From the IMG/VR virus record IMGVR_UViG_2681813205_000003: 7,329 nucleotides of DNA, one strand, 5' to 3'. Source of the stretch: a virus (lineage: Duplodnaviria; Heunggongvirae; Uroviricota; Caudoviricetes). The notes below the pieces were generated by a model that was not told the origin of the DNA, ran no database searches, and saw only the letters and a program-made list of their open reading frames with translations. Both the position numbers and the translations under genes were made by a program. This document shows positions 2,475 to 7,329 of the stretch, in pieces (within the stretch, counting starts at the first letter, position 1; each line of letters opens with the position of its first letter).

Positions 2475-3311
2475 TCAGAAGTCAGCCAGCTGGTCGGAGG
2501 CTGCGCCCGTTGCGGTGAACCGGTTCTGCGGATCGCCGTCCTGCGTGCGCAGTTTTTCCTTCAGTGCTGTCAGCTCTGTGGTCAGTGACGTAATTTTCTG
2601 GCGGTCCTGCTGATGGCGGGTTTCCAGCACATTAAAACGGTCGATAATGTCGGCCTGTGACGTTGCGACGCCTTCCACCGCTTCCTGAATACGGGAAAAA
2701 CTGGCGTCATCCGCTTTGCGGCCACGGCCAATAATCCCCATTACGCGGTTAAACCACTGGGTGCCTTCTTCCTGGCGTTGTTCTGCCATTTCGATGATTT
2801 CAGACTCGATGGCTTCGGAGATAAGCGGCGCTTCACCCTGGACACTGTTGAACGTCATTACCGCCTGACGTTGCTGTGCCGTGAATTTCAGGCGCTCAGT
2901 GCCCAGGCTTGCCGGGGTGTCGGTCATCGCCAGCCCGACCAGATAGGCGCGCCCGTTAACGGAGAACTGCGGGTGCAGTTCGATACTGGAATAGATTTTC
3001 TTGCCGTCCGCGACAAGCTGCTTCATGCGCTCGGTCGGTTCGATTTCTGCATACAGCGCAGTACGTCCGGCCAGCGGACCTTCCGTAATGTCTTCCGTAC
3101 TCAGTGCGGTGACATCGCCCATTGCGGAAAATTCGCTTGACGGGCATGGCGAGAGATAGTGCTCAACGTTCACGCGGGCAGCGTAAACATCCGGGTTGAA
3201 GTTCTCGGCGGCTTCACGCAGATGCACCGGACTGATTTCACGGCCATCAACAGTTGATCCGGAGACAGCCACGCGAAACTTTTTGCGGGATGTCTTTTTT
3301 TCATTAGCCAT
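2475..3311 (-). CDS. O: Capsid scaffolding protein, P2 gpO-like
   Basis: ORF-track frame 2475..3344. I place the start at the internal ATG at 3311 (MANEKKTSRKKFRVAVSGSTVDGREISPVHLREAAENFNPDVYAARVNVEHY...) because it has a GAGGGG ribosome-binding site 8 nt upstream and the N-terminus then resembles my recollection of P2 gpO (MAKKVSKFFRIGVEGDTCDGRVIS...). Downstream motifs (YSSIELHPQF, YLVGLAMTDTPASLGTERLKF) fit the GPO family. Confidence 0.87.
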   Translation of the reverse strand: MANEKKTSRKKFRVAVSGSTVDGREISPVHLREAAENFNPDVYAARVNVEHYLSPCPSSEFSAMGDVTALSTEDITEGPLAGRTALYAEIEPTERMKQLVADGKKIYSSIELHPQFSVNGRAYLVGLAMTDTPASLGTERLKFTAQQRQAVMTFNSVQGEAPLISEAIESEIIEMAEQRQEEGTQWFNRVMGIIGRGRKADDASFSRIQEAVEGVATSQADIIDRFNVLETRHQQDRQKITSLTTELTALKEKLRTQDGDPQNRFTATGAASDQLADF

Positions 3312-3465
3312 AGTTTTTGCCCCTCTGACTGGTTCTTCAGTCATGATGGCAAAGCGTAACAGGCTGATACAAAGGGCTTTTGTTGTAAGAAAACGGCCAG
3401 AACAGGGGGTTAAGGAGAACAGTTTCGCGCGCGGGTAATCTTCCTGTAATTACTCAGGGGGAGCA
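3312..3465. promoter_or_regulatory. Divergent intergenic control region between O (minus) and P (plus); expected site of the two late promoters
   Basis: 154-bp non-coding gap between divergently transcribed operons, as at the P2 P/O junction. It contains a partial dyad TGTTGT...AGAACA (3381-3404), a small ACAAA/TTTGT inverted repeat (3369-3386), a CGCGCGCG palindrome (3426-3433) and a TGTAAT -10-like hexamer (3445-3450). No exact TGT-N12-ACA activator dyad and no clean sigma70 -35/-10 pair found by eye. Confidence 0.5.
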
Positions 3466-5217
3466 ATGATTCAGGACGCTTTTGTGCGCCAGCGTGCGCG
3501 GCAACTTTACTGGCAGGGTTATCCGCCCGCAGAAATATCACGTCTGATGGGAATAAACCCGAACACGATTTATGCGTGGAAAAAACGCGACCAGTGGGAT
3601 GAAACGCCACCCGTGCAGCGTGTCACGCAGTCCATCGATGCGCGCCTCATCCAGCTTACTGAAAAACAGAATAAAACAGGCGGTGACTTTAAGGAAATAG
3701 ACCTGCTGACCCGGCAGCTTAAAAAACTGCATGATGGCCAGCCGGATGCGACGGCCACAGGAAAGAAAGGCCGGGCGAAAAAACTCAAAAATCATTTCAC
3801 GCCGGAACAGATTGCCGCACTGCGGGAAAAAATCATCAGCAGGCTGGAGTGGCATCAGCGGGGCTGGTTTGACTCCCTGACCCTTTGCAGGGAAGCCGGG
3901 ATACGTAACAGGATGATCCTGAAATCCCGACAGATTGGGGCGACCTGGTATTTTGCACAGGAAGCACTGCTGATGGCGCTGCGTGACGATGTGGCGCAAC
4001 CTTACCAGCGTAACCAGATTTTTTTGTCTGCGTCGCGTCGTCAGGCGTTCCAGTTTAAAAGCATTATTCAGAAGGCCGCGGCTGAAGTTGATGTGGAGCT
4101 GAAAGGGGGCGATAAAATCATCCTCTCCAACGGCGCAGAGCTGCATTTTCTCGGCACTTCTGCTGCGTCGGCACAGTCCTATACGGGCAATTTTTATTTT
4201 GATGAATTTTTCTGGGTCAGTCGCTTTGCTGAACTGCGCAAGGTGGCTGGCGCTATGGCAACCCTCAGCGGACTGCGGCGCACCTACTTCTCCACGCCAT
4301 CCACCGAAACGCACGAGGCATACGCCTACTGGAATGGCGACCGCTGGAACGAGAAAAAGGCCTCGCATAAACGCCAGCGTTTTTCTGTGGACTGGAAAAC
4401 GCTGCATAACGGGCTTATCTGCCCTGACCGGACGTGGCGGCAAATTGTCACGCTGGAAGATGTGGTTAATCACGGCTGGAAACACACCGATATCGACGAA
4501 ATTCGTGATGAAAACACCGAAGACGAGTTCCTCAATCTCTATATGTGTGAGTTTGTCCGCGAAGGGGAATCGGCATTTAACCTGAATATCCTGATTGGCT
4601 GCGGTGTTGACGGATACGACGACTGGAAAGACTGGAAACCTTTTGCTCCCCGACCGATGGGGAATCGTCCGGTATGGATTGGGTATGACGCAAACGGCAG
4701 TAGTGGCAACGGCGACAGCGGCGCTGTGTCCGTTGTGGTTCCTCCGGCTGTTCCTGGTGGCCGTTTTCGAACGGTGGAGACTCGACGCGTTCAGGGGCTG
4801 GAGTTTGAAGAGCAGGCCAGAGTCATTGAAGAGTTCACGTATCGCTACAACGTGGAACACATCGGCATTGATGTGACGGGCGGGAACGGGGAGGCTGTTT
4901 ATCAGATAGTGAAGCGGTTTTTCCCTGCTGCTATTCCGTACACCTTCACGCTGTCATCAAAACGGTCGCTGGTACTGAAAATGCTGCAAATAATGCGTGC
5001 CGGGCGGTGGGAATACGATCGCGCCGAACGCGAGCTGGTCGCGGCCTTTAACGCCGTGCGTAAGGTGAAAACACCGGGCGGCTTTATCACTTACGAAACG
5101 GACCGAGCGAGGGGGATCAGCCACGGCGACCTTGCGTGGGCAACCATGCTTGCTGTCATTAACGAACCGATTGGCGGCGAAGGAGAAAACGAGCGTTTCA
5201 CGGTTATGGAGTTCTGA
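3466..5217 (+). CDS. P: Terminase large (ATPase) subunit, P2 gpP-like
   Basis: 583-aa ORF with a G-rich ribosome-binding site (cagggggagcaATG). N-terminal HTH-like segment (YPPAEISRLMGINPNTIYAWKKR), deviant Walker A-like KSRQIGATWYFAQ and Walker B-like FYFDEFFW, all typical of P2-type terminase ATPase subunits as I recall them. Its stop overlaps the start of the portal gene. Confidence 0.9.
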   Translation: MIQDAFVRQRARQLYWQGYPPAEISRLMGINPNTIYAWKKRDQWDETPPVQRVTQSIDARLIQLTEKQNKTGGDFKEIDLLTRQLKKLHDGQPDATATGKKGRAKKLKNHFTPEQIAALREKIISRLEWHQRGWFDSLTLCREAGIRNRMILKSRQIGATWYFAQEALLMALRDDVAQPYQRNQIFLSASRRQAFQFKSIIQKAAAEVDVELKGGDKIILSNGAELHFLGTSAASAQSYTGNFYFDEFFWVSRFAELRKVAGAMATLSGLRRTYFSTPSTETHEAYAYWNGDRWNEKKASHKRQRFSVDWKTLHNGLICPDRTWRQIVTLEDVVNHGWKHTDIDEIRDENTEDEFLNLYMCEFVREGESAFNLNILIGCGVDGYDDWKDWKPFAPRPMGNRPVWIGYDANGSSGNGDSGAVSVVVPPAVPGGRFRTVETRRVQGLEFEEQARVIEEFTYRYNVEHIGIDVTGGNGEAVYQIVKRFFPAAIPYTFTLSSKRSLVLKMLQIMRAGRWEYDRAERELVAAFNAVRKVKTPGGFITYETDRARGISHGDLAWATMLAVINEPIGGEGENERFTVMEF

Positions 5218-6263
5218 TGAGCAGAAAAAATAAAAAAGTGCGCATGAGTTCACGCATTGATCTCGCTGATGCGCTCAGGAAAGAATCATCGCTCAGTGCA
5301 TTCACATTTGATGGTCCTTATCGCCTGACCGGGCATGACCTGCTGGATAATATGTACTGTGCTGATAACGGGCGGTGGTATGAAACCCCGGTGGACTGGT
5401 ACGGTCTGGCAAGAGCTGCCCGGCAAACGTCCTGGCATCAGTCTGCGCTTTACTTTAAGCGCAATGTATTACTCGGTTGCTACATCCCGCACCCGTTGCT
5501 TTCCCGGCAGGATTTCTCGGCGCTGGCGCTGGACTGGTTTGTGTTCGGTAACGCATTCCTTGAGCTTCGAAGCAATATGCTCGGCGAACCGCTTAAATTA
5601 CGGCACGCCCTGGCGAAATACATGCGACGCGGAAGCGATCTTGAATCATGGTGGTATGTGCAGGATGGCAAGGGCGCGTTCCAGTTTCGCCCTGGCAAAG
5701 TGTGCCACCTGATGAATCCGGACATTAACCAGGAAATCTACGGCATGCCGGAATATCTTGGCGCATTACTCTCGGCCAGCCTGTCTCATTCGGCGGACAT
5801 GTTCAGAAAACTGTACTACGACAACGGATCCCACGCCGGGTGCATCATCTACATCGGTGCAGCGCAGGTAAACCGCGAAAGCATGGACTCCCTGAAGGAA
5901 ACGCTACAGGGGGCACGTGGTGGTGGTGCGTTTAAAAACGTGCTCATTCATGCGCCCAACGGGGGCAAAGAGGGGGTGCAAATTTTGCCGTTCCAGCAGA
6001 TCACCGCAAAGGATGAGTTCATGAATGTTAAGGCGGCATCCCGTGATGATGTGCTGGCTTCGCACCGCGTTCCGCCGCAACTGATGGGGGCGATGCCGGG
6101 CGAAAAAAGTGCGTTTGGTGATGTGGAGAAGGCAGCGCGGGTTTACGCAATTAACGAGCTGATGCCTGTCATGGAGGCCATGAAGCACATCAATGACTGG
6201 CTTGGTGAAGAGGTGATCCGTTTTAATTCTTATGCTCTTCTTGATGAAAAAACAGCCCCGTGA
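5217..6263 (+). CDS. Q: Portal protein (capsid portal vertex), P2 gpQ-like
   Basis: 348-aa ORF starting at the ATG in the TGATG overlap with the P stop (5215-5219). The translation fits my recollection of P2 gpQ / PBSX-type portal proteins, and P followed by Q matches P2 order. It ends at TGA 6261-6263, inside the loop of the downstream terminator hairpin. Confidence 0.9.
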   Translation: MSRKNKKVRMSSRIDLADALRKESSLSAFTFDGPYRLTGHDLLDNMYCADNGRWYETPVDWYGLARAARQTSWHQSALYFKRNVLLGCYIPHPLLSRQDFSALALDWFVFGNAFLELRSNMLGEPLKLRHALAKYMRRGSDLESWWYVQDGKGAFQFRPGKVCHLMNPDINQEIYGMPEYLGALLSASLSHSADMFRKLYYDNGSHAGCIIYIGAAQVNRESMDSLKETLQGARGGGAFKNVLIHAPNGGKEGVQILPFQQITAKDEFMNVKAASRDDVLASHRVPPQLMGAMPGEKSAFGDVEKAARVYAINELMPVMEAMKHINDWLGEEVIRFNSYALLDEKTAP

Positions 6264-6280
6264 TGGGGCTGTCCTTTTTA
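6245..6280. terminator. Bidirectional intrinsic terminator shared by the convergent Q gene and the 6278..6802 ORF
   Basis: Stem acagcccc (6252-6259) / ggggctgt (6265-6272), 8 bp, with a 5-nt loop gtgat. It is followed on plus by ccttttta (T5) and preceded on plus by gaaaaaa (6245-6251), which gives a U-run after the same hairpin on the minus strand. The stop codons of both convergent genes abut or overlap the structure. Confidence 0.7.
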
Positions 6281-6802
6281 CCAGAGTTGAACCATTTTCT
6301 GGGTGCCGTCAGGCTTGAGATTATCAATTTCAGAGAGAACGTAATATTGGATGGCTTCACAAACGGTGGTGTATGGTGAATTACCTTCTTTAAGTGGCAC
6401 GATATTATTATTAACGCGAACCTGTATTTCATCGTTATACATTGCGATCGAAAGAGGAGTATGCACGAACGCGACTTCGCCAGGTGTGTCGTCAACCACT
6501 GTCTCAATGCTGAAAATCAGTTTTCGCTCATCATTGCCGCCCCTTGCTTTGGGGGTGGCGGCAGGAATCTGAGATAAAGGCATTCTGCGAAACCCTTCAG
6601 TTGTTTCCAGTCCGCATGAAACGTAATGCTGGCGATTACCGTCGCTATCCGTCCATGTCTGTGATGGCAGCTCCAGAGAGATTTCATAAGCATCAACAAT
6701 TCCCTGGGCAAGGTGTACAAGCGGGGTCAGATCTTCATTGCGGCGAAAACTTTCCTTTACCTGCTCTCGTTTTTCTCGTAACTGCTTGTAATTAATGACC
6801 AT
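6278..6802 (-). CDS. Hypothetical protein of unknown function (174 aa); candidate accessory/cargo gene of the prophage
   Basis: Minus-strand ORF. I favour the ATG at 6802 (MVINYKQLREKREQVKESFRRNEDLTPLVH...) because of a strong GGAGG 7 nt upstream (aatggaggctgttttATG); the ORF-track start at 6841 is a GTG. It ends at TAA (complement of 6278-6280) inside the bidirectional terminator. I recognise no family and see no Walker, HEPN or nuclease motif. Hand counts of 60-nt blocks give about 35-52% GC here versus about 55-65% in the structural genes. Confidence 0.6.
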   Translation of the reverse strand: MVINYKQLREKREQVKESFRRNEDLTPLVHLAQGIVDAYEISLELPSQTWTDSDGNRQHYVSCGLETTEGFRRMPLSQIPAATPKARGGNDERKLIFSIETVVDDTPGEVAFVHTPLSIAMYNDEIQVRVNNNIVPLKEGNSPYTTVCEAIQYYVLSEIDNLKPDGTQKMVQLW

Positions 6803-6904
6803 AAAACAGCCTCCATTGATTTCTTTGCTCGTATTTTGCACTTATGAAGTGTGGTCGGCAAGGTGCTGCATCACTGACGCGCTTCGCTTGTCTGCTGCTT
6901 CGCC

Positions 6905-6927
6905 GGGGCATAAAAAATTTATGCCCC
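6905..6927. repeat. Perfect 10-bp-arm inverted repeat with 3-bp spacer (GGGGCATAAA-aaa-TTTATGCCCC)
   Basis: ggggcataaaaaatttatgcccc at 6905-6927 is exactly self-complementary. It lies about 100 bp upstream of the 6802 start codon (in minus-strand sense) and 18 nt downstream of a possible 42-codon small ORF. No T-run follows on either strand, so it is more likely a protein-binding palindrome or RNA hairpin than a canonical terminator. Confidence 0.5.
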
Positions 6928-7207
6928 GACTCTCCAGCTCCTGTATCAGTCAGATAATTTCACGACGCCTTCCAGCTTATTGCCATCATCGGCGGTCAAG
7001 CTCTTACGCCATCCCATCGCGCTGACTGCATGTTCCCGCCGCCCCAGTGCGATTTTGACGGCCTTACCTTTCATCCCATCAAATCAGAACCCCTTACGTC
7101 TTTTTCACGCTCAGCGTGAGCGATACAGCCATTCTGTTGTGTCGCTGCGACATCGTTCAGGGAGTGCTATTTACCCCCTGAAACGCGGGCTGTTCCCCCG
7201 TCACCTG

Positions 7208-7231
7208 CGCGCAGAAAAAGCGCGTTTTTTT
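7208..7231 (+). terminator. Weak candidate plus-strand intrinsic terminator (5-bp GC stem, 7-nt loop, T7 run)
   Basis: cgcgc (7208-7212) / gcgcg (7220-7224) with loop agaaaaa, followed by ttttttt (7225-7231). The stem is short, and no plus-strand gene is evident upstream, so function is uncertain. Confidence 0.3.
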
Positions 7232-7239
7232 GTGCACGC

Positions 7240-7258
7240 ACGGATCCTTGACGGATCC
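7240..7258. repeat. Tandem direct repeat ACGGATCC x2 at 11-bp spacing, each containing the GGATCC palindrome
   Basis: acggatcc at 7240-7247 and 7251-7258, separated by ttg. The one-helical-turn phasing suggests a paired protein-binding site. Confidence 0.45.
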
Positions 7259-7301
7259 AGCCGCAACGCGGGCCGGAAGGGCAAAAAGTCGTTCAAAAAA
7301 A

Positions 7302-7328
7302 TTGTGCAAATTTGTGCACTATTGTGCA
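7302..7328. repeat. Three phased direct repeats TTGTGCA at 10-bp spacing (iteron/operator-like); array may continue beyond the window
   Basis: ttgtgca at 7302-7308, 7312-7318 and 7322-7328. A fourth TGTGCA lies at 7231-7236, immediately after the T-run. The window ends inside the array. Confidence 0.5.
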
Positions 7329-7329
7329 T

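Follow-up and report, generated by a model that had tools for sequence, protein, structure and literature searches.

Exclusion nucleases of the P2 Old type combine ATPase and Toprim nuclease domains in a protein of ~590 amino acids (aa), while P2 Tin is a small soluble protein that the lysogen makes from a promoter of its own and that binds and poisons a protein of the invading phage. The old and tin genes belong to the cargo of the interval between the replication gene gpA and the portal gene gpQ, described as a defence hotspot of P2-like phages (Rousset et al. 2022, PMC9122126). In Stx (Shiga toxin) phages, the slot between the antiterminator gene Q and the holin gene, with its promoter pR' and terminator tR', is the known arrangement of stx (PMC8065619). 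Here we describe an open reading frame (ORF) on the minus strand (6278–6802) of a stretch of viral DNA of 7,329 nucleotides (nt), IMG/VR record IMGVR_UViG_2681813205_000003, which is referred to below as the window. The window represents the head and packaging module of a P88-like prophage (Xuanwuvirus, Peduoviridae, P2-family). Our analysis revealed that the ORF is a real coding gene under purifying selection, and that it is a self-contained, standalone accessory ('moron') cassette of this prophage. As for its role, we tentatively favour a binding protein linked to the lytic cycle.

In comparison with the described cargo of the gpA-gpQ interval (old and tin of P2 as well as the systems of PMC9122126), the ORF shares its location between gpA and gpQ, its proximity to cos and its optional character. 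Unlike the genes that are swapped in this interval, which lie on the gpA side of a conserved non-coding block, it is situated on the portal side of that block. It also differs from the defence cargo in showing no similarity to PADLOC models, and from the P2 Old nuclease in encoding a protein of 174 aa that has no Pfam domain at E-values up to 1. The second likeness is to the morons of lambdoid late operons: distant family members hold the stx and bor positions in five lambdoid prophages, and the GC content of the gene is below that of its flanks. Unlike those morons, the window copy resides in a P2-type phage, is oriented against the late genes next to it, on the opposite strand, and has its own promoter-like element; Stx and Bor show no sequence or fold similarity to its product. 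Presence/absence variation, a predicted terminator of its own and deviant GC content, three traits of a moron, are all found in the cassette.

The gene is already catalogued as hypothetical. 'Hypothetical protein' is its sole annotation in RefSeq and in Table S5 of Rousset et al., where a near-identical protein, WP_001407222, carries that label only, and PHROGs lists the family under unknown function. In the accessible part of PMC9122126, WP_001407222 appears only in Table S5 and is not among the cloned systems. Since both this protein and the hotspot interval were recorded before, the gene is of a known kind, namely a phage moron. Within its family, phrog_5091, the protein is a plain member with no differing feature.

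A first-pass annotation of the window had described the ORF as a well-formed gene with a strong ribosome-binding site, opposite in orientation to the portal gene, low in GC content and devoid of any assignable motif, and all of these observations were borne out. The ribosome-binding site GGAGG (6814–6810, minus strand) is located 7 nt upstream of the ATG (6802–6800). The encoded protein (174 aa plus stop codon) begins with MVINYKQL, and its start codon can be fixed at ATG 6802 because an M-x-I-x-Y N-terminus is conserved across the family; the same start in all relatives makes a longer, GTG-initiated version of 187 aa unlikely. The ratio of nonsynonymous to synonymous substitution (dN/dS, Nei–Gojobori) was 0.07 between the ORF and its copy in phage 569R5, 0.15 between the ORF and a Salmonella copy of 97% identity, and 0.06 when the 569R5 and Salmonella copies were compared with each other. 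These values, 0.06–0.15 in total range, show that the ORF is real and selected. It is convergent with the portal gene (5217–6263, plus strand), and its GC content is 45.9% overall and 44.6% at third codon positions, compared with 53–54% and 60–68%, respectively, in the portal, terminase and capsid genes.

The product is acidic (isoelectric point 5.0, net charge -7), as are most members of the family. Inspection of the sequence by eye, with no predictor used, revealed no obvious signal peptide or transmembrane segment, and the protein is probably cytoplasmic. Searches of Pfam (E up to 1), NCBIfam and PADLOC gave no match. The only assignment came from PHROGs v4, where the protein matches phrog_5091 over its full length (E 6.8e-67, residues 1–168 against profile positions 1–164).

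An AlphaFold2 model, built from an alignment of 41 sequences, reached a pLDDT of 89.6 and a pTM of 0.79. In the modelled fold, an N-terminal hairpin of two helices (5–22 and 26–42) is packed on an antiparallel sheet (49–135), and a further helix follows (145–159). Foldseek found nothing for this model at E <0.01 in PDB or BFVD. The profile and structure searches that had been suggested with the first-pass annotation were thus productive on the side of the family, which is one of unknown function, and empty on the side of structural neighbours. Matches of a shallow profile to designed helical-repeat proteins in PDB (E 4e-10) were rejected as compositional artefacts, as they were gone with a deeper profile. 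Among small inhibitor or adaptor proteins, the anti-CRISPR AcrIIA11, DarA of P1, chaperones of type III secretion systems, immunity proteins of type VI secretion systems and FP dimerisation domains all gave fold scores in the chance range, with 4–13% identity to the protein; such resemblance is at most a lead and does not place the protein among them. The conserved positions (Y39, S42, L43, W50, G55, Y60, F97, T101 and the D104-D105 loop) are largely taken by aromatic, glycine or structural residues, and no catalytic motif was recognised among them in the 41-sequence alignment. Because the protein is small and acidic and the predicted fold has no catalytic motif, it is probably a non-enzymatic binding protein.

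All 41 diverse relatives in the alignment matched phrog_5091. None had a Pfam match, and against the 5,027 PADLOC models they gave only single chance-level matches (E of at least 0.009). No paper in the literature searched mentions phrog_5091. An exhaustive HMMER profile search of 1.84 billion cluster representatives returned 85 proteins, nearly all of them 155–185 aa long. A protein of 3,099 aa (P0030), which matched the beta-hairpin region partially at ten places, was set aside as repeat-driven noise. The close family is confined to E. coli, Salmonella, Yersinia and Trabulsiella, and the named hosts of further members (Edwardsiella, Pectobacterium, Morganella and the BFo1 symbiont) all belong to the Enterobacterales. 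When three family members were used as tblastn queries, only four of 50,697 phage records proved to be carriers, all of them P88-like temperate phages. Thus, in the contexts examined, the family is found only in temperate phages of Enterobacterales. Distant relatives, the lambdoid members included, share 22–29% identity with the protein. The genes next to the family gene differ between carriers and in every other phage context examined, and no conserved partner gene was found among them. In 8 out of 10 loci, the GC content of the family gene is 5–13 points below that of its surroundings.

The position next to the portal gene recurs in divergent P2-like prophages. Homologues in Salmonella (63% identity) and in Morganella (22–23% identity) are convergent with the portal gene as well; in Morganella, the gpA side is occupied by an EcoRII restriction-modification system, and ~250 nt upstream of the family gene lies a 186-like cos motif (GGCGTGGCGGGG). 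The identities of the portal protein and the ORF protein to those of the window drop in parallel (99/97, 75/63 and 47/23%). Because divergent phages hold the same portal-convergent position and the divergence of the gene tracks that of the portal, the cassette is, judging from these comparisons, a long-term resident and not a recent import. The first-pass annotation had regarded the gene as foreign; this stands for its deviant composition, but not for a recent insertion. A different position was observed in Trabulsiella, where the homologue (46% identity) directly follows gpA and has HicAB and Phd/Fic modules next to it.

Alignment with phages P88 and 569R5 defined the element as a presence/absence cassette of ~630 bp (~6244–6873, with bounds within ~10 nt), which is missing from P88 and carried by 569R5 and related phages. 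It comprises the last 5–6 portal codons, a hairpin, the coding sequence, the ribosome-binding site and a promoter-like element. The span of 6264–6850 given in the first-pass annotation does contain the gene, but falls short of the full functional unit. In P88, the portal gene is followed directly by the block equivalent to window positions 6874–7329. Presence or absence of the cassette alters the last 5–6 portal residues: the portal ends with ...LLDEKTAP when the cassette is present and with ...LLDTQPTS in the empty P88 allele, while the Salmonella portal ends with ...LLEEK. The resemblance of the Salmonella end to the occupied E. coli allele suggests that the empty state of P88 arose by deletion.

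Upstream of the gene, a sigma-70-like promoter candidate, TTGCCG-17 nt-CAAAAT (6861–6833, minus strand), agrees with 8 of the 12 consensus positions and falls below the threshold of the scanning tool. The 63%-identical Salmonella homologue has TTGTCT-17-CAAAAT at an equal distance from its start codon. On the other side, a GC-rich hairpin (6247–6277) abuts the stop codon of the ORF and holds the portal stop codon within its loop. With an A6 run upstream, a T5 run downstream and the ORF stop next to it, it looks like a two-way terminator common to the portal gene and the ORF. In Salmonella, a comparable hairpin separates the homologue from the portal gene. Ogr acts at P2 late promoters by binding dyads of the form TGT-N12-ACA. 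No such dyad is suitably spaced from the ORF; the only one nearby (7135–7152) is ~290 nt upstream, in the conserved block.

To determine how the slot is used, we matched a synthetic empty-site junction against 5,426 complete E. coli genomes, which yielded ~1,146 genomes, and read the occupancy from 60 evenly spaced records of the ~1,146–1,147 matched. In 56 out of 60 records, the slot was either empty (487 bp, in one piece) or filled with this cassette (~1,100 bp, in two pieces). The remaining four aligned only in part, and in three of these the alignment was confined to the portal gene (78–83% identity); apart from these four, the sample showed no third arrangement. The ORF itself is present in 397 of the 5,426 genomes (~7%), i.e., in 397 of the ~1,146 with this prophage type. 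A longer query gave the same count of 397; the ORF is therefore found only in this slot in E. coli. Carriers include lineages ST131, O111, O145 and O103, and copies with >90% identity occur also in Salmonella and Yersinia. In enterotoxigenic E. coli H10407 (NC_017633.1, 2142392–2142779), the copy matches query positions 138–525 only, with a second matching place in the record, and may be disrupted or rearranged.

These counts bear on two expectations of the first-pass annotation. A gene shared by all related prophages would have spoken for a core function, and the gene proved to be optional, absent from P88 and from most prophages of this type. The slot, in turn, had been taken for a hotspot of diverse defence systems. 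It does lie within the gpA-gpQ interval and its gene is optional, but in the 60-record sample the exact position next to gpQ was binary: syntenic prophages had this cassette or nothing, and no varied cargo.

The cassette is separated from the hypervariable gpA-side hotspot by a conserved non-coding block of 456 bp (6874–7329), delimited by alignments of phages and E. coli genomes and present in ~1,146 E. coli genomes. Its core (7166–7259) is invariant in the window, P88, 569R5 and strain 2313, and probably contains cos. The 19-mer of P2 cos was not found in the window with up to three mismatches, and the cos site is not described in the P88 paper. Just beyond 7329, the three aligned phages diverge entirely, and the genes that follow differ between carriers. 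Together with the binary slot on the gpQ side, this divergence shows that the gpA-gpQ hotspot of P88-like phages consists of two compartments, and that only the one on the gpA side swaps its cargo.

Several further motifs were observed in the block. TTGTGCA occurs four times on the same strand within 100 bp (7230–7236, 7302–7308, 7312–7318 and 7322–7328), and these are its sole copies in the window; the last three follow each other at an exact spacing of 10 bp up to the window edge, the starting point of the hotspot. The copies may form a protein-binding array, e.g., for terminase or the nearby ParR. The block also holds the TGT-N12-ACA dyad at 7135–7152, a predicted intrinsic terminator on the plus strand (7207–7231) and a direct repeat, ACGGATCC-N3-ACGGATCC (7240–7258). 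A perfect hairpin with an 11-bp stem, CGGGGCATAAA/TTTATGCCCCG (6904–6928), lies ~43 nt upstream of the -35 element of the ORF; in P88, it sits just beyond the portal stop codon. The record of phage P884B11 is linearised at window position 7283/7284. An ORF of 42 aa (6946–7074, minus strand; gene SF19_gp22 in P88) is probably no gene, as its start varies between ATG and GTG and many non-synonymous differences were found among four close relatives. Between gpA and the variable genes, P88-like prophages carry a plasmid-type ParM/ParR partition module. In strain 2313, this module is located past the right window edge (L001, 10985–11944 and 10669–10980), and parM is a pseudogene with an internal stop.

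Outside the P2-like phages, the family gene was observed in late operons of lambdoid prophages. At three loci (L007, L009 and L010), it lies between the antiterminator gene Q and the holin gene, and at two of them (L007 and L010) it is preceded by a pR'-like promoter and a tR'-like terminator and followed by another terminator. At two further loci (L004 and L005), it comes after the lysis genes, at a distance of 24–58 nt, and before terminase, in a bor-like position. All five copies are co-oriented with the late operon. Additionally, lambdoid members (L007, 7001–7039; also L009, L010 and L019) have a conserved in-frame extension of 12 codons (MLIR...) with an AAGGTG-type ribosome-binding site. 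Downstream of it, the M-S-I-T-Y start, likewise conserved, is served by a second site, GGAG, so that two starts or isoforms are possible.

The lambdoid relatives in the Q-antiterminated late operon, together with the P2-like gene that abuts the packaging and head module, make a role in the lytic cycle the most likely one. Our preferred reading, which we hold tentatively and with well under even confidence, is that the cassette encodes a binder linked to the lytic cycle that serves in counter-defence or against competitors. According to it, the phrog_5091 protein would be made during lytic development and would act by binding another protein rather than by catalysis. This binding would neutralise an immune protein of the host or a mobile element in competition with the phage, which would give the protein a role in genetic conflict.

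Several observations weigh against such a role. No homology links the family to a function. In the P2-like cassettes of both E. coli and Salmonella, the gene stands between a putative sigma-70-like promoter and a predicted terminator, and such flanks are the classic layout of a prophage-expressed gene, which favours a benefit to the lysogen. No family member was found in virulent phages (the four carriers among 50,697 phage records are all P88-like), whereas many counter-defence families are common to lytic phages as well. The Trabulsiella homologue lies on the gpA side, with HicAB and Phd/Fic modules as neighbours, and the gpA-gpQ interval is enriched in defence genes (PMC9122126). Finally, the placement of the gene could reflect permissive module boundaries, without functional meaning.

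A more specific version, which we consider doubtful, is that phrog_5091 represents a new family of conflict proteins with a fold not seen before. Its members would be co-expressed with late or packaging genes, in lambdoid as well as P2-type temperate phages, and would bind and neutralise either a host immune sensor triggered by late proteins (portal, terminase or capsid) or a satellite that hijacks packaging (P4-like or a phage-inducible chromosomal island). If so, it would be for functional reasons, and not incidentally, that the gene recurs next to portal, terminase or cos in phages of three architectures.

Among the alternatives, the best survivor is a Tin-like protein for superinfection exclusion or abortive infection that the prophage would express. 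The gene lies in the interval known for defence genes, is optional and AT-rich, and has the layout of a moron, with its own terminator and a promoter-like element conserved in Salmonella; moreover, all of the ~10 genomic contexts examined are prophages, and the Trabulsiella copy stands beside toxin-antitoxin modules. Other findings speak against exclusion. None of the 41 family members gave a significant match to the 5,027 PADLOC models, the slot is binary and does not swap cargo, and, in the accessible part of PMC9122126, the systems that Rousset et al. cloned do not include the protein, which is listed in Table S5 only. Additionally, five out of five lambdoid copies are placed in the late operon, by pR'/tR' or the lysis genes, and should be silent in the lysogen. 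Overall, we regard this explanation as rather unlikely. The first-pass annotation had proposed a novel defence or exclusion function, and our search for support failed: PADLOC and fold comparisons gave no match, and the Q-dependent late operons of the lambdoid relatives are ill-suited to defence from the lysogen. A defence role is possible; the genomic address that had suggested it has lost weight through the two-state slot, the long residence of the cassette and the absence of a match to any defence model.

Next, the gene might be cargo for lysogenic conversion that, like genes of the stx slot, is released or expressed upon induction and is directed at the physiology of the host or at a eukaryotic target, not at phages. 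The Q-holin slot, home of stx in Stx phages (PMC8065619), contains the family gene in three lambdoid prophages, and the cassette is common in pathogenic lineages (ST131, O111, O145 and O103), but this prevalence may mirror which genomes were sequenced. The protein shows no toxin-like or effector-like fold and, by eye and with no predictor used, no signal peptide or transmembrane segment, and the family is also present in plant- and insect-associated Enterobacterales (Pectobacterium and the BFo1 symbiont) and in Morganella. Such cargo thus seems improbable. We judge an accessory of the virion or its assembly, i.e., a head-internal or ejected protein or a packaging or assembly helper made with the late genes, to be decidedly improbable.

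The first-pass annotation had also considered that the gene could be one component of a multi-gene system continuing past the right edge of the window. The genes on the gpA side are indeed co-oriented with the ORF on the minus strand, but the conserved 456-bp non-coding block with its terminator-like hairpins intervenes, the genes past it vary among carriers, and relatives in seven other phage contexts have no common partner gene. Hence this proposal is largely refuted and hardly credible. A spurious or decaying ORF, for which one could cite only the lack of any annotation beyond 'hypothetical protein', is refuted by the signal of selection (dN/dS 0.06–0.15) and the conservation of the family (85 cluster representatives), along with the strong ribosome-binding site and the high-confidence fold model.

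The remainder of the window is occupied by genes for the small terminase subunit (553–1353), the major capsid protein (1399–2451) and the scaffold protein gpO (2475–3344) on the minus strand, and for the large terminase subunit (3466–5217) and the portal gpQ on the plus strand. The scaffold ORF is 289 aa long from its first ATG, while RefSeq and phage annotations give 278 aa (837 nt), starting 11 codons downstream. The nearest sequenced phages are P88-like (92–94% identity to the window), and the nearest E. coli chromosome is that of strain 2313 (98.4%). An Rfam search of the whole window gave no match.

It is worth stressing that the gene, present in ~7% of complete E. coli genomes and clearly under purifying selection, nevertheless matches no known domain and that its model has no convincing structural neighbour. 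The map of a hotspot with two compartments matters for predictions based on guilt by association. Its family has come up repeatedly at the moron sites that are most productive in temperate phages, namely the stx slot, the bor slot and the junction of cos and portal in P2-like phages. This makes the phrog_5091 gene a well-defined and easily cloned candidate for a new accessory function of phages.
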